The notes below the pieces were generated by a model. That model was not told the origin of the DNA. It did not search any database and saw only the letters and a program-made list of their open reading frames with translations. The position numbers and the translations under genes are program-made. Positions 2,783-17,914 of a stretch of 17,914 nt of DNA are shown one piece after another. Positions within the stretch are counted from its first letter, which is position 1, and every line of letters begins with the position of its first letter. Origin of the DNA: a virus. Its lineage: Duplodnaviria; Heunggongvirae; Uroviricota; Caudoviricetes. The DNA is taken from IMG/VR virus record IMGVR_UViG_2565956631_000008; one strand, 5' to 3'.

Positions 2783-3312
2783 CGTTTTATCGCAATCCTC
2801 AGTTGTTGTTTCAGCGCGGATGCCAGTTCTCCGGGCAGGCGTTCACGCCGGATACGGTCAACATTCTCATCAAACGCCTGTTTCAGTGGGGCCGCCATCG
2901 GGATTTTCACCACATCAATAGGGTAACGGTTTTTCCCGGCCACACGCTGCATGACATGCCAGCGACCGTTTTTTAATCGCTGAATGAATGCCCGCTGATA
3001 CCGATGCTGACCGGCTTTAAGTATGCTGTTCGGACGACGGCCCAGCATCCTGATCCCCAGCTTAATCACTGGAAGATCACCGCGGTTAACGATAATTTTT
3101 GCGTTCGGATTTCTGACCGTCGCCCGTTTCAGTCTGGACCGTTCCTTAACCAGTTTCCGGCGTACCTTTGTCTCCCGGGCAACCTGTGATGAAGACTGAT
3201 TAATCGCCGTTGTGGCCACGCGGTTAATCGTCATTGCTGAAGCCGCCGGAATGGCGTTTTTACGAACCCGGCTCAGATTATCAATCGCCTGATCAAGCCC
3301 TTTTATCGCCAT
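2779..3312 (-). CDS. Z: Tail completion protein gpZ
   Basis: 177 aa, MAIKGLDQAIDNLSRVRKNAIPAASAMTINRVA...QRLKNGRWHVMQRVAGKNRYPIDVVKIPMA...; lambda gpZ homolog. Stop overlaps the U start. Confidence 0.93.
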   Translation of the reverse strand: MAIKGLDQAIDNLSRVRKNAIPAASAMTINRVATTAINQSSSQVARETKVRRKLVKERSRLKRATVRNPNAKIIVNRGDLPVIKLGIRMLGRRPNSILKAGQHRYQRAFIQRLKNGRWHVMQRVAGKNRYPIDVVKIPMAAPLKQAFDENVDRIRRERLPGELASALKQQLRIAIKR

Positions 3313-3327
3313 AATTTCCCCCTGCGT

Positions 3328-3681
3328 TTATCGTCGCCGGTTAACAGCGGGTGGTTGCCCACGGTTGAGCCAGAGATAACAGCTTCCCCCGTCATCCGGA
3401 GAAACACGATCCACCCAGAACATCTCGCCGTTAATGGTCAGCGTGTCACCACGCCGCACGGCACGCACCGTATCCGTCCGCACAAATAATGACGGGCTGC
3501 TTCCTTCAATACGGACCCCGCCACCGGCAAAACCCAGCGACTCCGGATCGTCAAAAACCCCCTGAACTTCGCCGCCACGTTGTGCTCCGGAGGTGAACTG
3601 CGCACGGATCCCCATCACTTCAACAATCGTACTGTCCACCCCGGCAAGGGCGGCATCAAAGGCATTCTGAAAATCACGCAT
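3328..3681 (-). CDS. FII: Head-tail connector protein gpFII
   Basis: Internal start MRDFQNAFDAALAG... aligns with lambda gpFII (MADFDNLFDAAIA...); C-terminus ...FWVDRVSPDDGGSCYLWLNRGQPPAVNRRR is near-identical. The ORF-track start at 3717 is a 12-codon over-extension. Confidence 0.9.
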   Translation of the reverse strand: MRDFQNAFDAALAGVDSTIVEVMGIRAQFTSGAQRGGEVQGVFDDPESLGFAGGGVRIEGSSPSLFVRTDTVRAVRRGDTLTINGEMFWVDRVSPDDGGSCYLWLNRGQPPAVNRRR

Positions 3682-4048
3682 AAACAGCCATTCCACCATC
3701 AACGTGTGTTTTTGCATCTGAGGACATAATCAGAATCACCCGACCAACATCCGCAAGCTCAACGGATTCCCCCGTTTCACCATCAACGCCACAGAGATGG
3801 AGGCAGGTCAGAACTCTGATGCGCGTTAACGCGCCGGATGTTTCCTCACGAACATCATGAGCCGCGGTTTCCCGCTCCCGGATATCCATATTCATAACCT
3901 GTACATCATCGCCGGATGACTGCATTTCCTCTTCCCATTCTGCCACCCGCTGCGCTATCTCTGCGGCACTCCCGGATATATCCGGCTCACGCCCCAGAAT
4001 CAGGGCCAGTTCATCAAGCCGTTTCAGATTTTGCTCTTTCGTTGCCAT
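3674..4048 (-). CDS. FI: DNA packaging / head assembly protein gpFI-like
   Basis: Start taken at MATKEQNLKRLDELALILG... (ATG 4046-4048). Position between E and FII and size (124 aa) match lambda FI; sequence similarity is weaker than for the neighbouring genes. Confidence 0.75.
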   Translation of the reverse strand: MATKEQNLKRLDELALILGREPDISGSAAEIAQRVAEWEEEMQSSGDDVQVMNMDIRERETAAHDVREETSGALTRIRVLTCLHLCGVDGETGESVELADVGRVILIMSSDAKTHVDGGMAVYA

Positions 4049-5185: not shown

Positions 5186-5533
5186 TTACGGCAGAGCCGC
5201 GTGACTCAGGGCTGTGCCGGCAAAGGCATTTGCCTTTTTGTGTTCATCCACACTTTCAGGCCAGTGGATTGCCTCCGTCGCAAAGGTTCCCGACTTGTAA
5301 TACGTCAGCGCTGTCTCTGTGCCTTCAAGCGGCAGTACCAGTATGCCAACCGCACTACCGGCTTTCTGTCCATCCCAGACCACCAGTTTCCCGGTGGCTT
5401 CATCCAGCATCAGGGGCGTCAGAGCCGGTGTTGCGGAAGAAATCCCGCTGCTGCCTGTGGCGGTATGAGCCGGATCATTACCGGCAAAAATACGTACTTC
5501 CGCACGCTGTTCAGTGATGGTTTTCGTCACCAT
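5186..5533 (-). CDS. D: Head decoration protein gpD
   Basis: 115 aa containing NDPAHTATGSSGIS...PLMLDEATGKLVVWDG...GILVLP...YYKSGTF; lambda gpD homolog. Confidence 0.93.
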   Translation of the reverse strand: MVTKTITEQRAEVRIFAGNDPAHTATGSSGISSATPALTPLMLDEATGKLVVWDGQKAGSAVGILVLPLEGTETALTYYKSGTFATEAIHWPESVDEHKKANAFAGTALSHAALP

Positions 5534-5569
5534 TTTGTTAAAACCTCATATTGATGGTCAGCACTGACT

Positions 5570-6115
5570 TCATGGCATGGCCATGAGCATTTTCACGTCC
5601 GCATCACCGTCTGCTGACGTCTGTGACACGCCACCCCGCACCGCTGCCGGTGAATGATTCGCCATGAAATGTTCAAACAGGGCGGTTGTGGATGCAGAGA
5701 CCGGTTCGGCCTTACCTGATCCCGCAGCCAGCACAGCCCGGGCGTTCTCCACGGTCATTCCCGGGCAGGCCGCCAGTTTTTCAGCCTGCGCTTCTGCCCC
5801 TTTTGCCTCATCCAGGGCCATGATCTGATCACGAAGTGAGGGCCCGGCATCCGCCAGTGGTGCAGCCGCCAGTTGTTCACGACCGTTCGCTTCTTCACAC
5901 GCCATAATGCGATCGGCTTCACTCTGCGCGGATGCCACCGGCTGCTGCGGTGCCGCCGCGGCCAGAATCGCCCGGGCCTGTTCAACGCTCATGCCCTGTT
6001 GCCCTGCCAGCATCGTGGCAAGCTGTTCACGTCCTTTCGCTTCCTGGCATGTCAGGATCCCCATCACTCGCTGGTTCTCCTGCACGGCGGCTTCCGTTGC
6101 AGTTAATTGCGGCAT
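5570..6115 (-). CDS. Nu3: Scaffolding protein Nu3-like, in-frame internal start within C
   Basis: Internal ATG at 6113-6115 (MPQLTATEAAVQENQRVMGILTCQEAKGREQ...) is preceded by a GGAGG Shine-Dalgarno about 5 nt upstream; same nested C/Nu3 arrangement as lambda. Confidence 0.7.
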   Translation of the reverse strand: MPQLTATEAAVQENQRVMGILTCQEAKGREQLATMLAGQQGMSVEQARAILAAAAPQQPVASAQSEADRIMACEEANGREQLAAAPLADAGPSLRDQIMALDEAKGAEAQAEKLAACPGMTVENARAVLAAGSGKAEPVSASTTALFEHFMANHSPAAVRGGVSQTSADGDADVKMLMAMP

Positions 6116-7018
6116 AGTGCCTCCTCTGACATTACTGTTCAGCGCCGTGGCCATCACACTGATGGCATCCGACGCATTGATTAATTCATCCGCCAGCCCG
6201 GCCTCAATGCCGGACTGACCTTCAAAAACGGCGGCCTCTGTTCCCGTGACCGCATCCACAGACAACCCGGTATACATCGCCACTTTTTCGGCAAACATCC
6301 GGTGCGCCGCATCAATCCGCTGCTGCATGTCCTGGCGAACCTCTGCCGGCAACGCTTCAAACTGATTGCCATCCACCTTGTGCGCCCCGGCATAAATCAG
6401 CGTGATATCCACACCGGCCTGCGCCAGATGACCGGCATAGCTGACATGGCTCATCATCACGCCAATGGAGCCGATACGGGATGTCTGGGTAACCAGCCGT
6501 CGGGAGCAGGCCGACGCCAGCAGCATGGCTGCAGAACAGGCAGTGTCATTGCACAGTGCCCAGACCGGCTTCTGCTGACGGAGGCGGTAAATCATGTCAG
6601 CGCAGTCAAACGCGCCGGCGGCCTGCCCGCCCGGACTGTCAATGTCCAGCAGTACGCCCCGCACCTGGCTATCCGCCATTGCCTGCTGAAGACAGGCGAC
6701 AATGCCGTCATAGCCTGTCATTCCGGAAAATGGCCGCATACCGCCCAGCCGGTGCACCAGCGTGCCGGTCACCGGCAGTACAGCAATACCGTTCACCACC
6801 CGGTAAACACGGGCCGGTCGTTTACCTCCGGCCATGTACTCGTCCGTTTCAGCCAGCATTCCGGGAGCATCAAGCTGTACCTGTTGTTGTGGTACCGAAA
6901 GACTTGCTGCCCCTATCTCGCGCCCGAGCGCGCAAAAGAAAACCCGCGCATAGGCGGGCTCCAGAAGCAGCGGTTCATTGAATGCTGCGGCAATAATGTG
7001 TGAAAGATTACGTCTCAC
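5570..7018 (-). CDS. C: Head maturation protease / scaffold gpC (S49 peptidase family), GTG start
   Basis: 482 aa, (M)RRNLSHIIAAAFNEPLLLEPAYARVFFCALGREIG...; strong match to lambda gpC. The start codon is GTG, overlapping the last codons of B. Confidence 0.92.
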   Translation of the reverse strand: MRRNLSHIIAAAFNEPLLLEPAYARVFFCALGREIGAASLSVPQQQVQLDAPGMLAETDEYMAGGKRPARVYRVVNGIAVLPVTGTLVHRLGGMRPFSGMTGYDGIVACLQQAMADSQVRGVLLDIDSPGGQAAGAFDCADMIYRLRQQKPVWALCNDTACSAAMLLASACSRRLVTQTSRIGSIGVMMSHVSYAGHLAQAGVDITLIYAGAHKVDGNQFEALPAEVRQDMQQRIDAAHRMFAEKVAMYTGLSVDAVTGTEAAVFEGQSGIEAGLADELINASDAISVMATALNSNVRGGTMPQLTATEAAVQENQRVMGILTCQEAKGREQLATMLAGQQGMSVEQARAILAAAAPQQPVASAQSEADRIMACEEANGREQLAAAPLADAGPSLRDQIMALDEAKGAEAQAEKLAACPGMTVENARAVLAAGSGKAEPVSASTTALFEHFMANHSPAAVRGGVSQTSADGDADVKMLMAMP

Positions 7019-8600
7019 GTGGTGTTGTCTCCTCTTCCGGCCTGCGACTCTCCGCTATCTGCTGCTGATACGCCTGCGCTATCCACACCGGACGTGAGAG
7101 TCCGGCTTTTTCCCGCTCTGCAGATTCCCTGACCTGCTGGCGGAAAATGTCCTGATAATCCTCGCCCATCAGCGCCAGCTCTTTCTCATACGTGCTCAGT
7201 CCGGCCTCAATGCGCATCACTGATTCCTGAACCTCCTTGAGCCCGTCAATGGCCATTCTTCCGGCTCCAATCCACTCAGCCCGTGACCAGGCTGATCGCG
7301 CCTGATAAAAATCAAAACGTGCCCGTGGCGGACGAATAATCCCCCGAAGAAGTGCCTCTTCCAGCCAGCAGGAAAACATCTGCGTGGCCAGCCGGGACGC
7401 AATAAATTTTCGCCGCCCCATAAAATAGCGCCACGACTCATTGGCGGATGCGCGGGCACTTGAATAACTGACCTTCGAGTAATCACGGGACAACTGTTCG
7501 TAGGAAACGCCAAGACCGGCGGCGATATACCGCAGCAGCGCCTGTTCAAGCGCCGAAAATCCATTGTCTGAATCCTGCGCGGTCTGAAGTTTCAGATCAT
7601 CACCGGGGAAAAGGTGCGGAATTTTGACACCGCCCAGCGTCACGCTATTCGTGTCATACCAGGTGGAGAACTTATCCAGAATATTAATAAGCGGATTATC
7701 CTTCTGCCCCTGCGGCGCACCGGCGATATATTCAAAGGCCTTTTCGGTATCAAGGTCACTTTCAATCGTCGCTGCATACATCGCCTTCACTATGGCCGAC
7801 TGAAGCTGTGTTGCCTGCAGGGAATCGAGCATCTTCAGCCGTTCCATAACGCTGTAAAACTGATTAGCCCCACGGGTCTGCCCGTCCTCCACCGGCTCGA
7901 AAATATGCAGCATGGCCGGACGCCCGGTGGGAAGTTCACGCGGGATCCGTTCCCATCGTCCACTCCCGGAGAACGGAAAATCATCCTCACAGATATGGTA
8001 CGCAACGGCACGACCATATCGATCGACCTCCACCCCGGCCCGCAGAAAACGGTTCCCGATACCATGTCCTGGCGTGTCCACCCGTTTCGGACTCACGGCT
8101 TTAAAACGCGTACGAAACAGTTGCGTGCTCTCCGGATCCCAGACCGGCTGCACAAAGATTTCGCCGTTAAACGCATGAACGCCCACACCTTCACGAATAA
8201 ATTCTGTAAACGTGCGTTTCCCTTCCACGTCGATCTCGCCAAACACCCCTTCTGCGTATTCTGACCAGGCCGCCTCCACCTCATCGACAAAACTTTTTGT
8301 CGCGGTCTCCCGCATCCCCAACCAGCGCCAGTTCGGGCGGTAGCTGATAAGAAACATATGCCCGACAATGTGATCCTTATGCAGGGCCACCGCATTGGCC
8401 GCTATCCCGTTATTGCGCACCAGATCATCTGCCCGGGCATTCCCCAGACGCAACGCGGGCAGCAGGGCCGCATCGGCACTCTGCGCCGGTGGCAACCACT
8501 CCGCCATTTGCCCGCCAAATCCTGCGCCGCCCCCGTTGTAGCTGAGGCTCTCCCGAAGCGGAACGCCGTTCACATCAATCAGGACAGGCGTTCGTTTCAT
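7008..8600 (-). CDS. B: Portal protein gpB
   Basis: 530 aa, MKRTPVLIDVNGVPLRESLSYNGGGAGFGGQ...FEPVEDGQTRGANQFYSVMERLKMLDSLQATQLQSAIVKAMYAATIES...; lambda gpB homolog. Confidence 0.96.
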   Translation of the reverse strand: MKRTPVLIDVNGVPLRESLSYNGGGAGFGGQMAEWLPPAQSADAALLPALRLGNARADDLVRNNGIAANAVALHKDHIVGHMFLISYRPNWRWLGMRETATKSFVDEVEAAWSEYAEGVFGEIDVEGKRTFTEFIREGVGVHAFNGEIFVQPVWDPESTQLFRTRFKAVSPKRVDTPGHGIGNRFLRAGVEVDRYGRAVAYHICEDDFPFSGSGRWERIPRELPTGRPAMLHIFEPVEDGQTRGANQFYSVMERLKMLDSLQATQLQSAIVKAMYAATIESDLDTEKAFEYIAGAPQGQKDNPLINILDKFSTWYDTNSVTLGGVKIPHLFPGDDLKLQTAQDSDNGFSALEQALLRYIAAGLGVSYEQLSRDYSKVSYSSARASANESWRYFMGRRKFIASRLATQMFSCWLEEALLRGIIRPPRARFDFYQARSAWSRAEWIGAGRMAIDGLKEVQESVMRIEAGLSTYEKELALMGEDYQDIFRQQVRESAEREKAGLSRPVWIAQAYQQQIAESRRPEEETTPRET

Positions 8601-8803
8601 AACCTCACTCCCAGCGGACGACGGCGACGGCGGGTTGTCCCCAGTACCAACTCAGCATCATTGATCGCACGGTTAAGCTCATCCAGAGAGGCCGCCGTAT
8701 ATTCAATTCTTCGTCCATCTTTCTGGACAGACACCACCCGTTTACCGGTTAATAAATCAAGGCGCGCCTGACGCAGCGCCTGCAGTTCAGCGACTGTAAC
8801 CAT
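8597..8803 (-). CDS. W: Head-tail joining protein gpW
   Basis: 68 aa, MVTVAELQALRQARLDLLTGKRVVSVQKDGRRIEYTAASLDELNRAI...; same length as lambda gpW and clearly similar. Confidence 0.93.
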   Translation of the reverse strand: MVTVAELQALRQARLDLLTGKRVVSVQKDGRRIEYTAASLDELNRAINDAELVLGTTRRRRRPLGVRL

Positions 8804-10715
8804 TCACTCCTCCGGACAGCTTCGCTGCCAGTTCTTTAAGGGTTGGCCGGGTCGTCTCTTCTTCCCGGGATTTTGCCAGTACAGCCAGATCAAGCTGCCA
8901 GCGTTGCACGGACACACGTAATGCCGCGTAGGCATACACCAGGCAGTCCAGCGCTTCGTTACGCCGCTTTTTGTTATCCCACAGCAGACGCATCTTTCCT
9001 TTTTCCCACTTCTCCACAAGCTCTTCCGCGACCAGTTGCTGCGCCTCTGTCTGCGAAAAAATCTCCGGATCATCAGGAAAACGGATGGCATACGACGTGG
9101 CTTCATCCGCAGGCGTGGGCTCGGCTTTCATACGGGCATAGAGAATTTCTTTTGCGGTGTCCGTCCCCACTTCACACAGATAAACGCCCCGCTGATTGCG
9201 GGTTTTCGGCATGGTGATCACCGGCTTGCCATAGACAGACGCGCCTTTTACCGGCAGCACACGGAAAACACCGTGTTTTTTTGACCTCTGGTAGACGATT
9301 TCACCATCGATCCCCCCGGTGTCCCAGCAGACACGGGAAATGGTCATTTCGGTGCCATCCGCATGGCGGTATTTTTTGTTGATCGCCGCATCCACACGTA
9401 ACAGCGTCTCTTCCTCATCAGGACGCCCCATAATGATGATTTTATCCACCAGAAAAGCTTCCTCTCCCGGTGCCCATCCCCAGACATACATCTCAAAACG
9501 GTTTCGCTGCGAGTCAATGCCCGCCGTCAGATAAACCACCCGGGCAGGCACCGCCGCCGTGTAACGCACAACCTTATCCATCAGCACCTGGTGATCGAGT
9601 TTTTCGCCCACGGCCTCTTCCCAGGTCTCGCCCAGCGTGGTGTTCACAAAGGTTTTCAGGCCGTTGGGATCTTTCAGTGCATCCAGCCAGTCATAGACTA
9701 TCTGTACCCAGGTGGTGAACGGACTGTACGCTGTCCAGATATGGAACGTGATGGAGCGCGGCGGCGGAATTTCATTATCCGCGGCGCTGAAAAACGTCAG
9801 ACCGTCACGGGTCCACATCCCCGTGTTTTCACAGATCCACCGCCCGTTGCTCTGGTCAAGCTCAGACTGATGGATCACGCAGCCATGATGTTCACAGAGG
9901 TAGAAAACGCTTTCGGGGCTGTCCTTCTCCCATTTAAGGCCAAAAGGCGTGGATTCATCGCCAAATTTCAGATACTGCTCCTCCCCACAGTGTGGGCAGG
10001 GCACATAAAAACGCATGAAATGCGCCGACTCGTTGGCCGCTTTTTCGATCTGGCAGGTGCCTTTGATTTTAGGCGTCGAGCCGCGAATGGATTTGGGCCA
10101 TACAGAGCCCTCAATACGTTTATCCCCAAGCAGGGTTGGCGAACCCTCTTTTTCGACATCCGGTTCGAACGAGGAAAGTTCGTCATAGCAGACCACGTCC
10201 ACGGATTTTTCACGGTAGTTTTTGGCGGCAGCGCCGCCCAGGCACCAGAAACCCACACCCGATGAAAAGCGTTTCAGCGTGAGGGTATTGTCACGATGTT
10301 TACGCCCCAGCCATGGAAAAAGGTCTTTCAGACATGGCACATCCCGAATCGTCGCCTCCACGTGAGACTTCATAAAATCTTCAGCGGCAGAATCCGTGGG
10401 CTGAAAAAGCAGACTGTTTCGGGATTTATGCTCAATAAAATACCCGACCACCCCCAGCAACATCTTTGTATAGCCAACACGGGCAGATTTAATCAGATTA
10501 ACAGTCCGGATCTGATCATTCCCCATGCTGTTCATGATGGCGATCTGGAACGGCAGCGTTTTCCATTCTCCCTCACCATATGAAGATTCTTTAGGCAGAT
10601 AATAATTTTGATCAGCCCATTCAACTGGCGTCACCGGCAATGCCCTTATCAGGGGCTGTAATGCTGTTGTGACAGCACTCATCATATTATTCAGTTGTTG
10701 CTCTGATATATTCAT
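8787..10715 (-). CDS. A: Terminase large subunit gpA
   Basis: Start taken at MNISEQQLNNMM... (ATG 10713-10715); the ORF-track start at 10772 adds 19 codons with no lambda counterpart. Protein matches lambda gpA throughout (WADQNYYLPKESSYGEGEWKTLPFQ..., GSTPKIKGTCQIE..., CPHCGEEQYLKFGD...). Confidence 0.95.
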   Translation of the reverse strand: MNISEQQLNNMMSAVTTALQPLIRALPVTPVEWADQNYYLPKESSYGEGEWKTLPFQIAIMNSMGNDQIRTVNLIKSARVGYTKMLLGVVGYFIEHKSRNSLLFQPTDSAAEDFMKSHVEATIRDVPCLKDLFPWLGRKHRDNTLTLKRFSSGVGFWCLGGAAAKNYREKSVDVVCYDELSSFEPDVEKEGSPTLLGDKRIEGSVWPKSIRGSTPKIKGTCQIEKAANESAHFMRFYVPCPHCGEEQYLKFGDESTPFGLKWEKDSPESVFYLCEHHGCVIHQSELDQSNGRWICENTGMWTRDGLTFFSAADNEIPPPRSITFHIWTAYSPFTTWVQIVYDWLDALKDPNGLKTFVNTTLGETWEEAVGEKLDHQVLMDKVVRYTAAVPARVVYLTAGIDSQRNRFEMYVWGWAPGEEAFLVDKIIIMGRPDEEETLLRVDAAINKKYRHADGTEMTISRVCWDTGGIDGEIVYQRSKKHGVFRVLPVKGASVYGKPVITMPKTRNQRGVYLCEVGTDTAKEILYARMKAEPTPADEATSYAIRFPDDPEIFSQTEAQQLVAEELVEKWEKGKMRLLWDNKKRRNEALDCLVYAYAALRVSVQRWQLDLAVLAKSREEETTRPTLKELAAKLSGGVNGYSR

Positions 10716-11196
10716 CGAGTAAATCCGGTAATTTATCCCCCGCCCGCGCACACTGATTTGCCCCCTTCGCAATAAGGGTTTTCAGATGGTCAAGATGGCG
10801 CGGTGTTAAATCAGGAAACTGTCGCTGCATGGATAAAGGGATGGAATCAAGCGTACTGGATAACGCCATTGCCAGCTTGCTGAGGGCAAAAATACAGAAC
10901 CCGGTATCAATAAGTTTTCCTTTTGACACCTCATTTTTTAACTGCTGTGTAACAGCCTGTTCTGCTGTCAGTTCCCATCTGGCAATAAGCAATTTCTCCT
11001 CATAGTCGTCTTCGCTATCGCCATCAGGCACATCGTTTTTACTTCTTCTCAGATACGATATGTAAAAATCGCGCCAGGCATCCAGATCCAGTTGCCCTCG
11101 CTTATTCGATATCGGGGCACCCGGCAATTTCTGCAATCTGCGAAGCTGGCGATCGGTCAGACTTAAATGCCTGGCAACTTCAGTCTGCGTAGCCAC
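10687..11196 (-). CDS. nu1: Terminase small subunit gpNu1-like, GTG start
   Basis: 169 aa; C-terminal half (FCIFALSKLAMALSSTLDSIPLSMQRQFPDLTPRHLDHLK...LLDEYI) matches lambda Nu1, while the N-terminal HTH region (TQTEVARHLSLTDRQLRRL) is divergent. Overlaps A by 29 nt, lies immediately downstream of cos, and has a GAGG Shine-Dalgarno upstream. Confidence 0.9.
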   Translation of the reverse strand: MATQTEVARHLSLTDRQLRRLQKLPGAPISNKRGQLDLDAWRDFYISYLRRSKNDVPDGDSEDDYEEKLLIARWELTAEQAVTQQLKNEVSKGKLIDTGFCIFALSKLAMALSSTLDSIPLSMQRQFPDLTPRHLDHLKTLIAKGANQCARAGDKLPDLLDEYIRATTE

Positions 11197-11239
11197 TCCT
11201 CACCTCGCAAAAACTCTCACTTCACAATCACAACAAAAC

Positions 11240-11345
11240 CGGTCATGTCCGGCTTACATGTCTATTTTTTGTGCATGTCCGGTTCACAGAAGACCTCTTT
11301 TTTTATTTTTCATATAGTTAACTTGAAGAGAAACCGGACATGGTT
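11240..11345 (-). promoter_or_regulatory. cosB-like terminase binding region with three 9-bp CATGTCCGG / CCGGACATG repeats and an AT-rich spacer
   Basis: CATGTCCGG at 11244-11252 and 11274-11282, and its inverse CCGGACATG at 11334-11342, lie between cosN and the Nu1 start. The T/A-rich tract 11290-11330 could be an IHF-type bend site. Confidence 0.55.
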
Positions 11346-11379
11346 CCCGGAAAATTTTCATAAATAGCGAAAACCCGCG

Positions 11380-11391
11380 AGGTCGCCGCCC
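11380..11391 (-). other. cos: cosN, the 12-nt cohesive end GGGCGGCGACCT (read on the minus strand)
   Basis: Minus strand reads ...cgatccaacaggttacg GGGCGGCGACCT cgcgggttttcgctatttatgaaaattttccgg..., matching the lambda right-end/left-end junction as recalled; the match extends about 35 nt into the lambda left end. Confidence 0.9.
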
Positions 11392-11539
11392 CGTAACCTG
11401 TTGGATCGACGGAAAGGACCCGAAAACGAGAATAATTATCACTTACAGCAAGAATCGAATCTGATCTATTATGGTGCTTGCTATTATGTGCCGGCACAAG
11501 TGCGTCGTTTACCGTCATTTCACACAGAGGCATCATCAA

Positions 11540-11791
11540 ATGAAAATCAGAAATATTCTCGCTATCTCCCTTGCAACATCATCCTTCAGTTGCCTGGCAT
11601 TTAAATCCTCGCCCAATGTGCTACCAGGACCAACGAATCAACTAACTGCGGTAGAAAGTAAAATTATCGGACATTTTTATGCCCCACACAGTGCATTACC
11701 CGGAACAACCATCACAGGGACATGTGACGCCTCCCCCGTCCCGGGATGCACCTGTCCGTTTTGTACTATGCTGCGTAGCCAAAACCGATAA
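11540..11791 (+). CDS. Small secreted cysteine-rich protein (Sec signal peptide), function unknown
   Basis: Internal ATG at 11540 of the 11471..11791 ORF, with GAGG about 9 nt upstream. N-terminus MKIRNILAISLATSSFSCLA has a signal-peptide n/h/c layout; the predicted mature ~63 aa carries 4 Cys (TGTCDASPVPGCTCPFC). Opposite strand to the late operon. Confidence 0.5.
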   Translation: MKIRNILAISLATSSFSCLAFKSSPNVLPGPTNQLTAVESKIIGHFYAPHSALPGTTITGTCDASPVPGCTCPFCTMLRSQNR

Positions 11792-11852
11792 CATCCGCAT
11801 TTACCTGGTATTACATGATGAGTTCACGCAGCGACTGATAGAGGAAGGAAAG

Positions 11853-12032
11853 ATGGTTAGTAAAAGCAAGGCGCATTGCCGCCGCATGCTGCAGGCATTG
11901 CAACAGACGAGAGCAGGTATTTTTGACCAGTTGGAAAACTGCCAGCATACTTTGCCCGAGTATATCGCCATCTCATCGGAAACCAGTGCAACTCTTATTC
12001 ATCGGGTTCCACCAGAGAAAAAGAAGAAATGA
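11853..12032 (+). CDS. Small hypothetical protein (59 aa) with strong RBS
   Basis: ATG at 11853 preceded by GAGGAAGGAAAG; MVSKSKAHCRRMLQALQQTRAGIFDQLENCQHTLPEYIAISSETSATLIHRVPPEKKKK. The longer ORF-track frame (from 11679) overlaps the upstream gene and lacks an RBS. Confidence 0.45.
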   Translation: MVSKSKAHCRRMLQALQQTRAGIFDQLENCQHTLPEYIAISSETSATLIHRVPPEKKKK

Positions 12033-12037
12033 ACAGT

Positions 12038-12062
12038 GAGGCGTTGTGTGGCATACAACGCC
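12038..12062. terminator. Perfect 9-bp hairpin between convergent genes; probable bidirectional terminator
   Basis: AGGCGTTGT-gtggcat-ACAACGCCT starts 6 nt after the stop of the plus-strand 59-aa ORF and is followed by TCTTCC; on the minus strand it is followed by a CATTTCTTCTTTTTCTC tract. Confidence 0.5.
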
Positions 12063-12154
12063 TTCTTCCATCATTCCTCGTCAGCCATGACAAAAATATA
12101 ACCGCTGGCTCTTTCATTTTTCTCCTGCGTCCAGCCCCTCTCTACCTGGAAGCA

Positions 12155-12481
12155 TCAAGGACGTGACGGCGTAAAGATAAATTGTCTCTTCACTCCCTGA
12201 CAGGGGCGATTCTTTTCAAATCGCCATTTCGCCATGGCCTTCACCACTTCATCACGAAACAAATTATGAGGCTCTGAGCGGAGAAAAACGATCCGTGTCA
12301 CAGTCCCATCAGCACCAATATCGAACTTAACCTCAACCAGCCCCTTGATATAATTTGCTGCAGCATATTCCGGATATCGTGGATACACCGTCACTAATTG
12401 CCGGGGCTCATCAGCTTTTTGCTGCGAGCATCCCACTGCCAGGACAGATAACAGAAAAAGTAGTAAAAGGCGTCTTTTCAT
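12155..12481 (-). CDS. Lipoprotein with TonB C-terminal-domain-like fold
   Basis: Start at MKRRLLLLFLLSVLAVGCSQ (ATG 12479-12481, AGGA 7 nt upstream): signal peptide plus lipobox-like AVGC. Remainder ...VYPRYPEYAAANYIKGLVEVKFDIGADGTVTRIVFLRSEPHNLFRDEVVKAMAKWRFE aligns with the E. coli TonB C-terminal domain (YP..A.A..I.G.V.VKFD...DG.V...S.P...F..EV..AM..WR.EP). Confidence 0.7.
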   Translation of the reverse strand: MKRRLLLLFLLSVLAVGCSQQKADEPRQLVTVYPRYPEYAAANYIKGLVEVKFDIGADGTVTRIVFLRSEPHNLFRDEVVKAMAKWRFEKNRPCQGVKRQFIFTPSRP

Positions 12482-12791
12482 TTTTATTCCTACGGGTCTT
12501 ATTCTGACAATATATCCTGTGTTCCAGACTGCCACATCACCACATCCTGTGCCATTATCTGACTCACATTACATACATCGCATCGGGATACAGTAGTAGC
12601 ACTTTCTGTAATACAGCTTCCTGTTTCTTCCACCATCGCACCGGGATAAACCCGCGAATCATTAACGCGGTAAAAACCCGGTGTGCATCGTTTTTAATTA
12701 TCCCCGCACACTCGCGCAGAGGAGTCTCCCTGTCGGGCTGCGGTCTCTGTTAATGAGGGAATATAGCGACGATACGGCGCATCAACAAAAC

Positions 12792-13265
12792 TTATTTCAG
12801 GCACTGAGTGCGGATATAGTCCTGTGCCCCTTCCAGTTGCTTGTGCATCGTCATCAGCCGCTCTCTGAGGGTGAAATAATCCCGTGTAACGGTGTCTGCC
12901 AGTTGGGGGCCGGTTGCATTATCCACGCCGGAGGTGGTGGGGGCTTCACGCACGGAGCCTGGACAGGTGGCGTTGATCCGCAGGCGCTTACGACCAGCGG
13001 CAACGTCAGCGCGAAGAGTTTCATTTTCAGCTCTCGCATCGGCTAATTCCCTCGAGTATTTTGCATCGAGCGCAGCAACATCGCGCTGGCGCACCTGCAT
13101 ATCAGTAATGGTTGCGTTCGCCAGCTTCAGTTCACTGGCTTTGTTATCGCGCTGCGCTTTGTAGGTAATCGCGTTATCACGGTAATGGTCTGTTGCCATC
13201 CACAGCGCACCACAGGCCACCAGCAGAATAACGATAAACGCGGAAAGCATTCGGTTTATGTTCAC
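12792..13265 (-). CDS. Rz: Spanin inner-membrane subunit Rz (i-spanin)
   Basis: ...[55 protein letters not shown]...[18 protein letters not shown]...; near-identical to lambda Rz. The ORF-track start is GTG (13263-13265) overlapping the stop of the upstream small ORF as GTGA; an alternative ATG lies at 13248-13250. Confidence 0.93.
12854..13039 (-). CDS. Rz1: Spanin outer-membrane lipoprotein subunit Rz1 (o-spanin), embedded in Rz in the +1 frame
   Basis: [59 protein letters not shown]; lipobox plus proline-rich core, near-identical to lambda Rz1 and wholly inside Rz in a different frame. Confidence 0.9.
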
Positions 13266-13393
13266 CCCAGCAACCCCGACGAAGACAACATCATCCAGGC
13301 CATGGAAAGAAAAAGAGCAACCAGCATTAGTGAAAATGAAATGCCGACAATTACACAGAGGATCTTCGCCAGCGTTATGAGTTTGTCTGACAT
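13262..13393 (-). CDS. Small single-pass membrane protein (43 aa), function unknown
   Basis: Internal ATG at 13391-13393 preceded by GGGAGG 8 nt upstream; [43 protein letters not shown] has one hydrophobic helix. Its TGA stop overlaps the Rz GTG start. Confidence 0.5.
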
Positions 13394-13407
13394 GCTTAAT
13401 CCTCCCT

Positions 13408-13554
13408 TCACGATTTCAACGCAATGACCAGTTTTGCCAGCCCATACAGCATCGGGGACACAGCAACACCGACCGCCACCCACTTAATGGCAAAAGCCAG
13501 TGCTCTGCTGATGTCATCAGTTACAGGCGCTTTCAGTTCAAGGCCATTTTTCAT
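13408..13554 (-). CDS. Small protein with C-terminal transmembrane segment (48 aa), function unknown
   Basis: ATG at 13552-13554 with GAGG 6 nt upstream; [48 protein letters not shown]. An alternative start at 13590 (MAKCKR...) is possible. The stop lies 14 nt before the next small ORF. Confidence 0.4.
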
Positions 13555-13746
13555 AGTCAACCTCAACAGAATTCGTTTACACTTCGCCATGTTCTCCCTT
13601 GCCTTACTCAAGGTCAGAAACACAAAACCTCGCTTGGTGCCAACAAACGGGGTTTTTACTTTTATTCACTTACGTTTCGCCAGTTCGCAGGATTTCGTGT
13701 TATCCGCCCGCGTGGCCATTCCTCATTTTTCAGCAAAATATTCTGC

Positions 13747-14280
13747 TTATCTGTCGATACCCCAGCACGCCAGCGCGCTCTCCTGGTCACGACGGGATAC
13801 CTGACCGTAACAGTTGTTTGAACGAATACGGCAGTCTCTGCCACCGTCCTTAATCCACCAGCGAATCGCTTCGCAGGCACCTTTTCGATCACCAGCATTA
13901 ATTCGTCTGTAAAACGTCGACGGGAAACACTTACCGGGACCAATGTTGTACGGACAGAATGACGCGATCCCCGCTTTCTGGGGTTCGGTCAGCGGCACTC
14001 TGATGTTTTTCTCCACCCACGCCAGCGCTTTATCACGCTCAATGGCGTTAACCTGGTCGCATTTTTCCTTCGACAACTTCATGCCCGGAACGACAGGTTT
14101 GCCATCCACCATGATGGCACCACGGCAGATGGTCCAGATACCTGCACCATCACGGTATGCCGTGGTGTGGTTGCCTTCCTTTTCATCCAGAAACTGGTCG
14201 AGAATGTCAGGCGCAGGCGCACCAGCGGCAATCAGCGCCAGAACGGCAGCCGACAGGCCGTATTTGATTTTGGTGTTCAT
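13747..14280 (-). CDS. R: SAR endolysin (T4-lysozyme-like muramidase, GH24) with N-terminal signal-anchor-release domain
   Basis: 177 aa; N-terminal Gly/Ala-rich weakly hydrophobic segment YGLSAAVLALIAAGAPAP, then EGNHTTAYRDGAGIWT giving the E-x8-D-x5-T catalytic spacing typical of phage 21 and P1 type SAR lysozymes. Confidence 0.9.
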   Translation of the reverse strand: MNTKIKYGLSAAVLALIAAGAPAPDILDQFLDEKEGNHTTAYRDGAGIWTICRGAIMVDGKPVVPGMKLSKEKCDQVNAIERDKALAWVEKNIRVPLTEPQKAGIASFCPYNIGPGKCFPSTFYRRINAGDRKGACEAIRWWIKDGGRDCRIRSNNCYGQVSRRDQESALACWGIDR

Positions 14281-14316
14281 GGATATATTAAATATTCAGC
14301 CGCTGTCCCTGGCCCA

Positions 14317-15207
14317 CTAAATACGCACTTTAAGATAAGTCAGCCCCGGATGAAGCCAGTAAGCCGGCCCTTTTTTAAAGGGTGGAGTATTAAAATCACG
14401 AAGAAGAGCCTCCCGCACAATTGCATCCTTATCAGCACCACTGGCCAGCGCTTCAATCTCAGCGGCTACCTGAAGATATCCCATGCAACGGCCAACGCGC
14501 TTCATCAGCCCCTGCTTTTTATTGTTCTTCAGGTAATCAATGGCAAATTCAATGAGCTCCTCACTGTGCTGGTGCGATGGAGGTGTTACTTTCCCATTTT
14601 CTGAGATGGTTATTTTCCCAGCATCACCGGATACAACAAAGGATGGCCGGTTACACTCCCATTCCGGGTCACTGAAATTATCATTATGAATACTGAAACA
14701 CTCTGCGAGATTTCTGCTCATCACTTTCCGACAATAATCGTCAAACGCAGCAAACTGCTTTTCATCGCCAGAAGGCACCAATATCGACCATTTCTTATTC
14801 AGCTCAACGACGTAGCTCTCCAGTTTTTCAATACGTGATTCAACATCATCTTTTTCTGACCGCAGTGTTGACGGCGGCATCTTCAGAGAACAAGTAATTC
14901 TTCCCGGTAGCTTTCCTTTGTAGGTTATCAACACATCCTGCGCCTCTAAAATTACGGGGCGCTTTTCCGGCAACGGTTCGTTCCATTCACATAACCCGGC
15001 AGCAACATCCATGAAAAACTGCTTCGCCTGCTTTTTCGCCTCAGCTTCGTAAAACTCCAGCGTGGCACCTTCAGTACGGTCAAGACTAATCGCCACATCT
15101 GGCAACAACAGCGACGCTTGCCCGTCACCTTCCGACTTCACAGTAACAGTAACCTTATCCCCGTAATTATTTATCCCCTTAACAACCAGTTCATATTTTT
15201 TATTCAT
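14317..15207 (-). CDS. Uncharacterised 296-aa protein inserted between holin and endolysin
   Basis: Long ORF with ATG at 15205-15207, 4 nt after the holin stop, and a GGAGAG Shine-Dalgarno upstream; MNKKYELVVKGINNYGDKVTVTVKSEGDGQ.... No TM segment, signal peptide or catalytic motif I can recognise. GC looks lower by eye than the flanking late genes. Confidence 0.75.
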   Translation of the reverse strand: MNKKYELVVKGINNYGDKVTVTVKSEGDGQASLLLPDVAISLDRTEGATLEFYEAEAKKQAKQFFMDVAAGLCEWNEPLPEKRPVILEAQDVLITYKGKLPGRITCSLKMPPSTLRSEKDDVESRIEKLESYVVELNKKWSILVPSGDEKQFAAFDDYCRKVMSRNLAECFSIHNDNFSDPEWECNRPSFVVSGDAGKITISENGKVTPPSHQHSEELIEFAIDYLKNNKKQGLMKRVGRCMGYLQVAAEIEALASGADKDAIVREALLRDFNTPPFKKGPAYWLHPGLTYLKVRI

Positions 15208-15211
15208 CACT

Positions 15212-15427
15212 TTACTCTCCCCGCGCCGCCTTACGCCGGTCCTCTTTGATTTTGAAATACAGGTTAGTCAGATATGTCAGCAGCCCAAACAGCAGACTCC
15301 CCAGCACGCCTATTGCCGCCCACTGAGACGGGGAAACCCTGTCCAGCAACTGCAGGAACCAGTAGCCCGTTCCCACCGCTGACGTGGTGTATGACACACC
15401 TGTTGTGATTTTTTCCATCTGGTACAT
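15212..15427 (-). CDS. S: Class II pinholin (phage 21 S-like) with dual-start motif
   Basis: [71 protein letters not shown] (71 aa), near-identical to phage 21 S / E. coli EssD-type holins as recalled. Two in-frame Met codons (15427 and 15418) give antiholin and holin forms; GGGAG Shine-Dalgarno upstream. The ORF-track start at 15532 is an over-extension. Confidence 0.92.
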
Positions 15428-15459
15428 ACCCCGTCTCCCGTTATCCGGAAGCTGACAAC

Positions 15460-15491
15460 AATAAAAAAGCCACCAGTTAAGTACTGATGGC
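15460..15491 (-). terminator. Rho-independent terminator-like hairpin about 30 nt upstream of the holin start
   Basis: Minus strand: GCCATCAG-tacttaa-CTGGTGGC (8-bp stem with one G.U pair) followed by TTTTTTATTGTTG. Confidence 0.55.
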
Positions 15492-15734
15492 TCTGATAAC
15501 TCATGCAGGCGTCTCAGACGACCCACTGACACTACCGGTGAGTTTAACGATACCTTCCATTTGACTGGCTCACTTTTTATGATGATGCCGGTGCATTTAT
15601 CTCCAGCACCAGACTTTCTATCTCAACGCCATACGTTGCATTTTTGGTAATATCCGTCAGCGTCAGTGCATTTAGTCCCACTGCCAGACCGTCTTTTATG
15701 GCCTGGAATGCCGGGCCAGTACGATGACGTAGTA

Positions 15735-15938
15735 TCACTCCGGCTCAGTTGCACCACTGACCACCACATCACCTTCTGCTGCAATCGCCTGCATCAGGGT
15801 ATAAGGGGTTATGGCCACCGGACTACCAAACGGCTGCCAGCCCTCTTTCAGTTTATGTGTCAGCTTTTCCGCAAGATCTGACGGCGACGCCGCCCTGACA
15901 ACATCATAGTGTTTAAATGCCATGGTTCTTTCCACCAT
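15735..15938 (-). CDS. Small conserved prophage protein upstream of the holin (possibly DUF1737 family)
   Basis: 67-aa ORF MVERTMAFKHYDVVRAASPSDLAEKLTHKLKEGWQPFGSPVAITPYTLMQAIAAEGDVVVSG; the start may instead be the internal ATG at 15923 (MAFKHYD...). The family assignment is from memory and not verified. Confidence 0.55.
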   Translation of the reverse strand: MVERTMAFKHYDVVRAASPSDLAEKLTHKLKEGWQPFGSPVAITPYTLMQAIAAEGDVVVSGATEPE

Positions 15939-16183
15939 CTGAAAAATGATTCTTTAAAATACCTGACATGTAATACAGAAAAAACACAAAACCATACCTT
16001 AAATAAAAACCTCATCATCAAGCAGATATGCATGGATAAACTACAAGACGAGATATAAACCACCCTGCATTTAAATAAACAATAAACAACATCAGAAAAA
16101 TAATTCTGCTCTATGGTTTACAATCAAAAATATCATTTATACTTTTCAGAACATCACCAGCAAGGCATAAACAAGGAAACTAA

Positions 16184-16519
16184 ATGAAGTGGATTGTGAT
16201 TGATACAGTTATCCAGCCATCATGCGGAATATCTTTTTCAGTCATATGGAGTAAAATAAAATTAATAATCTGGTATCAATCGGATGCTTTCTTACCTCCT
16301 GAAAGTATATTTACACTGACTCACACAGGTATCATGCTCAATAACAAAGTGCTACCTGTAACCATTTACAACGTAGTACCATTCAATAAAACATTCTGGA
16401 ATTTAATCAAAAACAGCCAGGAATGCCCTACAAATACAGATAACGTATTGAATGAATGCTTTAATAACCGTTGCACTCTGCAAATATGTCCTTATGGGCT
16501 AAAACAACAAAGTCCATAA
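16184..16519 (+). CDS. Hypothetical 111-aa protein in an AT-rich island, opposite strand to the late operon
   Basis: 111 codons without a stop in clearly AT-rich DNA, which is unlikely by chance; AAGGAA Shine-Dalgarno 6 nt upstream of the [46 protein letters not shown]...[15 protein letters not shown]; no homolog recognised. Confidence 0.5.
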
Positions 16520-16539
16520 GGAGTTTACTCACATCTGAC

Positions 16540-16562
16540 AAAATCAATATAAACAGCCCCTC
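16540..16562. terminator. Perfect 9-bp GC-rich hairpin; likely terminator, mainly minus-strand
   Basis: CAGCCCCTC-cgga-GAGGGGCTG lies 20 nt after the stop of the plus-strand ORF. On the minus strand it is followed by TTTATATTGATTTTGT; on the plus strand there is no U-tract. Confidence 0.5.
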
Positions 16563-16770
16563 CGGAGAGGGGCTGGAGAGTGGCGCTATGTGCCATTGCA
16601 TGGTGCCGGGTGCCTCCCGGTGAATTCAGTACCAGCACCTGAATCCGCGATTATCCCATATACCTACTCGCTGATTGCCCCTCCGCACAGGGGGATTCAC
16701 CATGCCAGTTTCTTTTAACAAACTCCCCGCAAAACAGACAACTGTCAACCGTCTGAATTGTGAGACATTT

Positions 16771-16795
16771 AAAAAAAGGCCCGCAAAAGCGAGCC
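16771..16795 (-). terminator. Rho-independent terminator just downstream of the tRNA cluster
   Basis: Minus strand: GGCTCGC-tttt-GCGGGCC (one G.U pair) followed by TTTTTTTAAATG, starting about 15 nt after the 3' CCA of the last tRNA. Confidence 0.6.
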
Positions 16796-16809: not shown

Positions 16810-16886
16810 TGGCGCGTTGTACTGGATTCGAACCAGTGACCGATTGCTTAGAAGGCAATTGCTCTGTCCGGTTGAGCTAACAACGC
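16810..16886 (-). tRNA. argO: tRNA-Arg, anticodon UCU (reads AGA)
   Basis: Hand-folded 77-nt cloverleaf from the minus strand: acceptor GCGTTGT/ACAACGC, D-stem GCTC/GAGC, anticodon stem ATTGC/GCAAT with loop CTTCTAA, T-arm ACTGG-TTCGAATC-CAGT, discriminator G, encoded CCA. Resembles E. coli argU. The gene symbol follows the ileZ-argN-argO order of Stx phages and is tentative. Confidence 0.8.
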
Positions 16887-16899
16887 AGGGTACAGATAA

Positions 16900-16976
16900 T
16901 GGACCGCCATCGAGGACTCGAACCCCGCGCAACCAGCTTCGAAGGCTGGCGCTCTATCCTGATGAGCTAATGGCGG
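16900..16976 (-). tRNA. argN: tRNA-Arg, anticodon UCG (reads CGA/CGG)
   Basis: Hand-folded cloverleaf: acceptor CCGCCAT/ATGGCGG, D-stem GCTC/GAGC, anticodon stem CCAGC/GCTGG with loop CTTCGAA, T-loop TTCGAGT, encoded CCA. The C1 start and U discriminator are unusual, so the ends may be off by a base. Gene symbol tentative. Confidence 0.7.
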
Positions 16977-16983
16977 TATGTGA

Positions 16984-17059
16984 TGGTGGCCCTTGCTGGA
17001 TTTGAACCAGCGACCTGGCGATTATGAGTCGCTCGCTCTCACCACTGAGCTAAAGGGCC
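16984..17059 (-). tRNA. ileZ: tRNA-Ile2 (anticodon CAU, presumably lysidine-modified; formally could be Met)
   Basis: 76 nt, GGCCCTTTAGCTCAGTGGTGAGAGCGAGCGACTCATAATCGCCAGGTCGCTGGTTCAAATCCAGCAAGGGCCACCA; roughly 90% identical by eye to E. coli ileX as recalled. Confidence 0.8.
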
Positions 17060-17529: not shown

Positions 17530-17910
17530 TTACTTTTTTAGCAGCCAGTCGTCCATCTCCAGTCTTACCCCCAGCACAGACAAACATCCGTCAATAAACC
17601 CTTCGGCTATCTGCATCTCAATTCGTATTGCTTTTTCGCTTTTCTTTCTCGTCCTGGCTATCTGTCTTTTTGATATTCGCAACAAATAATGAGCAATGAG
17701 AAGCGAATACTCCTCAGGTTTTTTCTGCTTCAGACGAGCAAGACAGTTTTCAATGATAAGTCCGTCATCATCGCAGCAGGCCGGACGTGGTTTAGTGGCA
17801 GATGGTAAAAGTCCTTTGAATCCGGCAGCGATCGGAGAATAGTCCACCCCGGTGTTACCACTTGCAGCCCATGCCCCCCAGCGTTCAAGAACCATCTGAA
17901 TATCACGCAT
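17530..17910 (-). CDS. Q: Late-gene antiterminator Q (Q21/QuuD-type)
   Basis: MRDIQMVLERWGAWAASGNTGVDYSPIAAGFKGLLPSATKPRPACCDDDGLIIENCLARLKQ...; recognised from memory as the E. coli prophage Q/QuuD family (about 127 aa). The start lies 4 nt from the window edge, so the RBS is not visible and a longer N-terminus cannot be excluded. Confidence 0.8.
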   Translation of the reverse strand: MRDIQMVLERWGAWAASGNTGVDYSPIAAGFKGLLPSATKPRPACCDDDGLIIENCLARLKQKKPEEYSLLIAHYLLRISKRQIARTRKKSEKAIRIEMQIAEGFIDGCLSVLGVRLEMDDWLLKK

Positions 17911-17914
17911 CAAC

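Follow-up and report, generated by a model that had tools for sequence, protein, structure and literature searches.

A long-form YdfR-family gene in the holin-endolysin slot of a lambdoid late region: modular anatomy, distribution and possible functions

The 17,914-nucleotide IMG/VR virus record IMGVR_UViG_2565956631_000008 (the window) is a lambdoid late region, and between its holin and endolysin genes lies an intact 891-bp open reading frame (ORF) of 296 codons plus stop on the minus strand (14317-15207). This gene, hereafter the target, encodes a soluble protein of 33.3 kDa and had been singled out in a preliminary description as an unrecognised and unusual insertion of uncharacterised function. 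We found that it is a catalogued, uncharacterised member of the DUF1327/YdfR family at its ordinary position. What is new relative to the known DUF1327 family is the modular anatomy of the long form, including a conserved C-terminal domain that has no Pfam family.

Family identity and modular anatomy

Residues 1-100 of the target protein aligned to positions 1-88 of the 93-position Pfam model DUF1327 (PF07041) and scored 137.9 bits (E 1.3e-40; gathering score 25), and PHROG 1085, annotated 'unknown function', matched it end to end (1-296 on 1-296 of 296, E 7.6e-190). Identical and near-identical RefSeq copies are named 'YdfR family protein', with 100% identical DNA present in NZ_CP030768. An NCBIfam scan of the protein gave nothing significant, and the best match in PADLOC-DB v2, PbeC (E 0.018, 11.3 bits, 58 of 655 profile positions), was neither significant nor credible. 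BLASTP aligned the target head with residues 1-74 of Escherichia coli K-12 YdfR at 47% identity (E 6e-21), and the motif DR.EGA.LEFYEA is invariant. The position of the target, after an S21-type holin and before a lysozyme, agrees with the K-12 Qin prophage, where the order is essQ (S21-type holin), ydfR, rrrQ (lysozyme) and rzpQ. The insertion had thus been named by RefSeq and assigned to families, in the same slot as Qin ydfR; that its function is uncharacterised still holds, as the family carries no assigned role.

K-12 YdfR (b1555) shares with the target the N-terminal domain, the essQ/rrrQ slot and the 4-nt spacing after the holin, but it is a 103-residue protein of head and short helix whose stop overlaps the lysozyme start, whereas the target carries ~220 further residues comprising a linker, a coiled coil, a middle segment and a conserved basic C-domain. 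Long forms in PHROG 1085 and RefSeq, such as the 329-aa protein of Stx2a phage Stx2_95 and the 268-aa orf5 product of Stx2 phage 86, occupy the same slot and differ from the target only in indels of middle-segment cassettes and in head allele; Stx2_95 also has the 36-nt spacer to the endolysin seen at the target locus. Same-slot versions in Shiga toxin (Stx) phages measured 114, 211, 268 and 329 aa. The long form appears to be the full architecture of the family, with K-12 YdfR as a head-only version.

The module plan (Table 1) was read from an alignment of length variants (A1), together with alignment A2 for relatives. The head was modelled by AlphaFold2 (AF2) with a predicted local distance difference test score (pLDDT) of about 66-86 over residues 1-70, and it occurs in two allelic classes that are ~54% identical to each other. 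The linker is predicted to be disordered and is variably present among relatives. The short coiled-coil-like helix is the element common to longer head-containing, C-only and full-length forms, and it holds the only invariant or near-invariant A1 columns other than M1, namely E130, L136 and K138. The C-terminal module bears the signature H214, G239-R240, L245-Q246, A248-A249, E250/E252, P276, K278, W284, P287-G288 and Y291-L292. One relative, P0017, has the other head allele yet is identical to the target protein over residues 176-296, and this mixed make-up shows recombination between modules.

The full-length AF2 model was poor (pLDDT 53), resolving only the head and part of the C-module, and a Foldseek search of the Protein Data Bank (PDB) with it was uninformative (best E 0.36). 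When residues 176-296 were modelled with 81 diverse sequences, a compact and confident model was obtained (pLDDT 82.8, predicted template modelling score 0.77). No solved structure in the PDB matched this module significantly in fold or sequence, and searches of PDB sequences with the protein (phmmer) and with a family profile returned only chance-level matches, such as LSm3 at E 1.3. Nor does the C-domain have a Pfam family, as only DUF1327 recurred when 81 family members were scanned singly at E ≤ 1. The most conserved C-domain motif (…MKR.GRCMG.LQVAAEIEA; positions 222-246 of alignment A4, target residues ~232-254) resembled a 25-residue stretch of 8tch_A, a 'Pathogenicity island protein' (residues 412-436, …MQRLGRAFALLQVTGEV), a weak and non-significant match at E 0.17.

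The most distant clusters of the family, at 25-46% identity, are 'hypothetical proteins' of Salmonella enterica that lack any precomputed Pfam domain. Profile-profile comparison with hhalign (probability 89%, E 2.3e-6) showed that they begin with a divergent DUF1327 head. A coil comes next, and after it the C-module, in which 16 positions are invariant: H214, I223, L226, G239, R240, L245, Q246, A248, A249, P276, K278, W284, P287, G288, Y291 and L292. These proteins (P0146, P0151, P0155, P0211 and others) thus resemble the target in their head/coil/C-domain plan and in their late-operon location beside lysis genes, but differ in having 25-32% overall identity to it, no Pfam annotation and a position that is not between holin and endolysin. 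Pfam DUF1327 spans only the first third of the ancestral protein, and the conserved C-terminal domain, common to these unannotated Salmonella proteins, merits a family of its own.

Intact long forms are also sometimes mis-flagged as pseudogenes by RefSeq. In NZ_CP030768.1, positions 9556-9891 (corresponding to 14872-15207 of the window) carry a Prokaryotic Genome Annotation Pipeline (PGAP) pseudogene call, 'incomplete; missing C-terminus', which covers the DUF1327 part only. As the ORF there is identical and intact, the flag is probably an annotation artefact of a family model that spans the head alone.

Distribution, slot polymorphism and expression

When 1.84 billion cluster representatives were searched exhaustively with phmmer, just 74 clusters of this family emerged, confined to Escherichia, Shigella and Salmonella. 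Among 5,426 complete E. coli genomes, 496 (~9%) contained at least 80% of the 891-bp gene, and 2,703 (about half) contained some part of it. A scan of genome contigs by one strict pattern returned 3 loci, a count that says little on spread beyond Escherichia and Shigella.

In Salmonella the gene follows Q and a reverse-oriented HicAB pair and precedes a PF16080 holin, lysozyme, Rz and terminase. One metagenomic contig has the family gene two genes upstream of an S21-type holin. These positions indicate that what is conserved is a link to the lysis module and to the beginning of the late operon, and not to the holin-endolysin gap or to a given holin. The reverse-oriented HicA/HicB toxin-antitoxin pair, which sits between Q and the YdfR-like homologue in Salmonella prophages, was located at 2885-3522 in locus L090 and at 3127-3781 in locus L092.

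We then sampled 80 IMG/VR loci by the holin alone, at 97-100% identity to that of the window, and 71 of them had a downstream endolysin. In 12 of the 71 the slot was empty, with the endolysin ATG 1-4 nt past the holin stop, and in the other 59 it was occupied, giving holin-endolysin intervals of 358-1316 nt. The 931-nt interval of the window recurred at nine loci. Slot contents ranged from heads only (86-116 aa), through head plus linker and coil (176-183 aa) and headless C-modules with their own coil (185 and 213 aa), to head/C-module fusions of 268-333 aa. GenBank phage genomes yielded 434 records with the holin, 100 with the head and only 5 with the C-module. The preliminary description took abutment of holin and endolysin as the norm for such cassettes; this agrees with the roughly three quarters of GenBank holin-bearing phages that have no head, but fits only the 12 empty IMG/VR loci. 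Many phages do have abutting holin and endolysin genes, but occupied slots are frequent and have been annotated before.

At the left junction of the target, the coding strand reads GGGGAGAG-TAA-AGTG-ATG, with the holin TAA at 15212-15214, the 4-nt AGTG gap and the target ATG at 15205-15207; starting instead at an in-frame GTG at 15210 would add one residue. The coordinates bear out the layout given in the preliminary description, including a Shine-Dalgarno of the gene's own and gaps of 4 nt and 36 nt on its two sides. In empty loci the endolysin itself uses the strong Shine-Dalgarno within the 3' end of the holin gene, through the GGGGAGAG-TAA-4nt-ATG junction, whereas in occupied loci the YdfR-like gene takes that junction and the endolysin ATG is preceded by a conserved AU-rich leader with no recognisable Shine-Dalgarno. 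Because the endolysin start differs between empty and occupied loci, slot occupancy may alter endolysin translation.

A reverse-oriented small ORF of 86-105 aa lies directly downstream of the YdfR-like gene in Stx2 phage 86, PhiR5_1 and Salmonella prophages; the positions are 3210-3524 in locus L002, 3193-3453 in L003, 4854-5114 in L090 and 4807-5124 in L092. No Pfam family is common to these ORFs, and the window neither has such an ORF nor offers space for it, so a conserved gene pair was dropped as a candidate.

Base composition set the target apart from its neighbours, as had been described: its GC content is 0.462 (0.47 at third codon positions), compared to 0.542 for the holin, 0.545 for the endolysin and 0.549 for Rz (0.59-0.68 at third codon positions). 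Two further features of the earlier account stood up, the absence of a transmembrane (TM) helix and of a recognisable catalytic or defence motif. The maximum Kyte-Doolittle value over 19-residue windows was 0.75, compared to 1.7 in the membrane segments of the holin and endolysin, and the target protein is therefore soluble by hydropathy, without the one or more TM or signal-anchor segments that mark a holin, antiholin or membrane-anchored lysis regulator.

A crude consensus scan found no promoter-like site on the coding strand across 14281-15430 and no convincing terminator between the target and either the holin or the endolysin; the sole terminator-like site of the target was a weak hairpin with a poor T-tail within its own 3' end. 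With no separating promoter or terminator, the target is a late-operon gene and not a self-contained unit, and we rejected a classical moron, defined as a self-contained transcription unit, even though its base composition deviates as a moron's would. What survives of the proposed moron is its presence/absence pattern, which looks like horizontal modular exchange. Passing the terminator-like hairpin at 15466-15494 would need Q antitermination, so expression of the holin, target and endolysin would depend on Q. The suggested co-expression with the lysis genes is supported, while simple read-through in a lysogen is disfavoured by the hairpin.

Selection was estimated as medians of the ratio of nonsynonymous to synonymous substitution rates (dN/dS) by the Nei-Gojobori method in the annotated frame, which gave 0.37 for the head, 0.63 for the linker, 0.39 for the middle and 0.29 for the C-module. 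These values indicate real coding sequence under moderate constraint, and together with hundreds of homologues they show that the target is not a chance ORF. A decaying passenger without present function, retained merely by sitting in an operon that prophages keep, is nevertheless suggested by several copies: about 6 of the 59 occupied loci are clearly truncated or frameshifted, a 162-aa truncation (P0068, 216 member sequences) is common, a Shigella copy has a degraded 3' end, and the identical copy in NZ_CP030768 bears the pseudogene flag. We consider such decay highly improbable, since dN/dS is below 1 for every module, the 296-aa frame is kept in 9/9 of the loci with the 931-nt interval, Escherichia and Salmonella proteins, at ~30% overall identity, share the three-part plan and the 16 invariant C-domain residues, and the flag looks artefactual. 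Degradation in close relatives, which the preliminary description had named as grounds for doubting the gene, thus occurs in a minority of loci and leaves the 296-aa form intact.

Possible functions of the long form

The reading that we favour, and hold tentatively, is that the target is a dispensable late accessory protein that may act on host RNase E or on RNA. Experimental information comes only from K-12 YdfR, whose first 72 residues came up three times when RNase G served as bait in a two-hybrid screen (PMC13232886). In the two-hybrid assay this stretch is enough for interaction with RNase E 1-597, which was stronger than that with RNase G (PMC13232886). Strep-tagged YdfR also co-purified FLAG-tagged Rne 1-598 along with DNase-resistant nucleic acid (PMC13232886). 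Joint deficiency of RNase E and RNase G delays lysis and lowers Stx2-phage yield, toxin, and Q and stx2 mRNA (PMC8443680). That phage proteins can act on the N-terminal half of RNase E has a precedent in T4 Srd (cited in PMC13232886). Placement of the family in the late operon of two genera, with differing holin families and positions, points to a late-phase function that is not specific to a holin. The C-domain, with a pI of 9.3, is also basic and rich in conserved polar and aromatic residues.

Under this proposal the target would be translated late in lytic growth, in coupling with the pinholin, from the late transcript that depends on Q. By analogy with the K-12 homologue, its acidic head may dock on the catalytic N-terminal half of RNase E, the short coiled coil probably oligomerises the protein, and the basic C-domain probably binds a second partner, either RNA or a protein. 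The likeliest action would be to modulate or retarget RNase E and RNA turnover during late transcription, as adaptors or regulators like RapZ and T4 Srd do. The likeness to T4 Srd and E. coli RapZ is one of functional analogy only, as no sequence or structural relationship to either was found, and an effect of the target on RNase E is putative. A direct part in disruption of the membrane or cell wall is less likely.

Several observations weigh against an RNase E-directed role. The RNase E data come from a homologue just 47% identical and were obtained by two-hybrid and co-purification; YdfR overproduction changed few transcripts and left growth unaffected (PMC13232886), and its authors could not rule out that the co-purifying RNA stemmed from a contaminant (PMC13232886). 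Searches of PDB and Pfam gave the C-domain no structural or sequence relative that hints at its role, and many viable phages lack the gene or carry a single module. The divergence of heads to ~54% identity, beside an RNase E that is essentially invariant in E. coli, is more in keeping with an arms-race target than with a host housekeeping enzyme.

A broader form of the RNase E proposal, which we regard as rather improbable, is that long YdfR-family proteins are an unrecognised class of adaptors in which the head binds RNase E/G and the C-domain picks an RNA or protein target, so that lambdoid and Stx phages reprogramme RNA decay as late gene expression begins. If so, lysis timing, burst size and possibly Shiga-toxin output would be affected, and the shuffling of heads and C-domains would reflect target diversification. 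Many E. coli prophages, Shiga-toxin phages among them, carry a member of the family in their late operon, and extension of the K-12 YdfR-RNase E link to the long forms would reveal manipulation of host RNA decay by temperate phages, with possible effects on toxin and phage yield. A C-domain missed by Pfam, an RNase E-linked head and modular polymorphism in prophages of major pathogens leave the family worth pursuing.

The lysis-timing, anti-defence and exclusion roles raised in the preliminary description gained no direct support, but each can be weighed against the data above. It is unlikely, in our view, that the target is a cytoplasmic regulator of lysis timing that binds the cytoplasmic tail of the pinholin, tunes holin triggering or release of the signal-anchor-release (SAR) endolysin, or whose insertion lowers or delays endolysin translation by pushing the endolysin off its coupled start. 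Such a role would suit the tight linkage of the family to lysis cassettes in Escherichia, Shigella and Salmonella, and also the arrangement in which the target occupies the holin-coupled Shine-Dalgarno and ATG and leaves the endolysin with a leader that lacks one. The K-12 ydfR deletion is moreover among the hits of a screen for envelope leakiness (supplements of PMC3879167), but that entry is a bare line in a supplementary list without follow-up, and cassette polarity on rrrQ could explain it. T4 RIII/RI, P1 LydB, the S21-71 antiholin and Mu releasin likewise lie in or beside lysis cassettes and are co-expressed with holin and endolysin, but the target has no homology to these or other known antiholins and lysis regulators in Pfam or PHROGs, and no TM segment. 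Nor does it co-vary or obligatorily co-occur with one holin: holins 97-100% identical to the window's are paired with empty, head-only, C-only or fusion slots, head alleles ~46% different stand beside near-identical holins, and the Salmonella homologues lie upstream of PF16080, another holin family.

About as doubtful is a conflict gene of the moron type, acting in anti-defence, superinfection exclusion or competition between phages, for which the fast modular evolution would be the mark of an arms race. The low GC relative to neighbours fits this idea, as do the presence/absence polymorphism, cassette-like mosaicism and divergent alleles, a dN/dS that is only moderately low (0.3-0.6), the very small family with its narrow host range, and a late-operon region that also houses stx, nanS-p and Bor-like genes in relatives. 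Expression argues the other way. The target has no promoter or terminator of its own, expression in a lysogen would be blocked at the terminator-like hairpin that precedes the holin, and K-12 ydfR is essentially silent in uninduced cells, with almost no RNA-seq reads in standard growth (PMC13232886). Late expression is ill suited to defences that are met at infection, and the PADLOC search (E 0.018, 11 bits) yielded no credible defence match.

Setting of the gene in the late region

The lysis and late genes of the window all lie on the minus strand (Table 1). From Q towards the lysis genes the order is Q, a DNA-methylase fragment, three tRNAs, an STnc100 small RNA (sRNA), a DUF1737 remnant, the hairpin, the holin and the target, followed by the endolysin, Rz/Rz1, a TonB_C-domain gene, Nu1 and the large terminase. 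Met1 and Met4 of the holin presumably form the dual-start motif established for S21. The N-terminus of the endolysin is Gly/Ala-rich and resembles a SAR sequence, with a hydropathy maximum of 1.74 at residue 9, and an E-8aa-D-5aa-T motif can be read off its translation. Positions 5317-16775 of the window are 99.95% identical to a prophage of E. coli 2017C-4173W12.

Table 1. Coordinates of the target gene, its modules and signals, and neighbouring late-region features in the window
Feature	Position	Strand	Basis and remarks
YdfR-family gene, long form (target)	14317..15207	-	ORF; DUF1327 residues 1-100; PHROG 1085 1-296
Module 1, DUF1327 head, residues 1-75	14983..15207	-	three strands and a long helix; pI 4.8; dN/dS 0.37
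Module 2, linker, residues 76-118 (PEKRP...ITYKGKLPG...STLRSEKDD)	14854..14982	-	A1; pLDDT 21-35; dN/dS 0.63
Module 3, short coiled-coil-like helix, residues 119-150, VESRIEKLESYVVELNKK	14758..14853	-	A1; predicted helix 113-143
Module 4, variable middle, residues 151-185	14653..14757	-	A1, A2; other cassettes in relatives; dN/dS 0.39
Module 5, conserved basic C-terminal domain, residues 186-296	14320..14652	-	pI 9.3; three-stranded meander and four helices; dN/dS 0.29
Shine-Dalgarno GGGGAGAG	15215..15222	-	sequence; within final holin codons; serves any gene after the holin stop
Spacer from target stop to endolysin ATG	14281..14316	-	36 nt; AU-rich; no obvious Shine-Dalgarno (…AATATATCC ATG); conserved in occupied loci
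Q antiterminator	17530..17913	-	PF06530, E 1e-52
Terminator-like hairpin, 12-bp stem and T-run	15466..15494	-	~40 nt upstream of holin start; well downstream of Q and tRNAs
S21-type class II holin (pinholin), 71 aa	15212..15427	-	PF04971, E 7e-33
Endolysin, lysozyme family, 177 aa	13747..14280	-	PF00959, E 2e-24
Rz spanin	12792..13265	-	PF03245, E 2e-47
Rz1, embedded in Rz	12854..13039	-	ORF

Other elements of this region were noted in passing. The tRNA trio between Q and the lysis genes (minus strand; Met-CAT 16984-17059, Arg-TCG 16900-16976 and Arg-TCT 16810-16886) spans 16810-17059 in an arrangement like the tRNA clusters of Stx-type lambdoid phages. Just downstream of it, on the minus strand, a full-length match to STnc100 sRNA (Rfam RF02076, 16545-16734) scored 133.6 bits against a gathering score of 47 and is closed by a strong terminator-like hairpin at 16554-16575. 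Within a very AT-rich island at 15800-16519 (GC 0.33-0.37), between STnc100 and the DUF1737 remnant, the plus strand carries a 111-aa ORF (16184-16519). It has no Pfam match, is annotated as the anti-adapter protein IraM in a near-identical RefSeq prophage, and resembles a classical moron in reverse orientation. Between Rz and the terminase genes, a 126-aa ORF (12155-12535, minus strand) carries a TonB C-terminal domain (PF03544, E 1e-12) and occupies the spot of Bor-like lipoprotein genes in other lambdoid phages.

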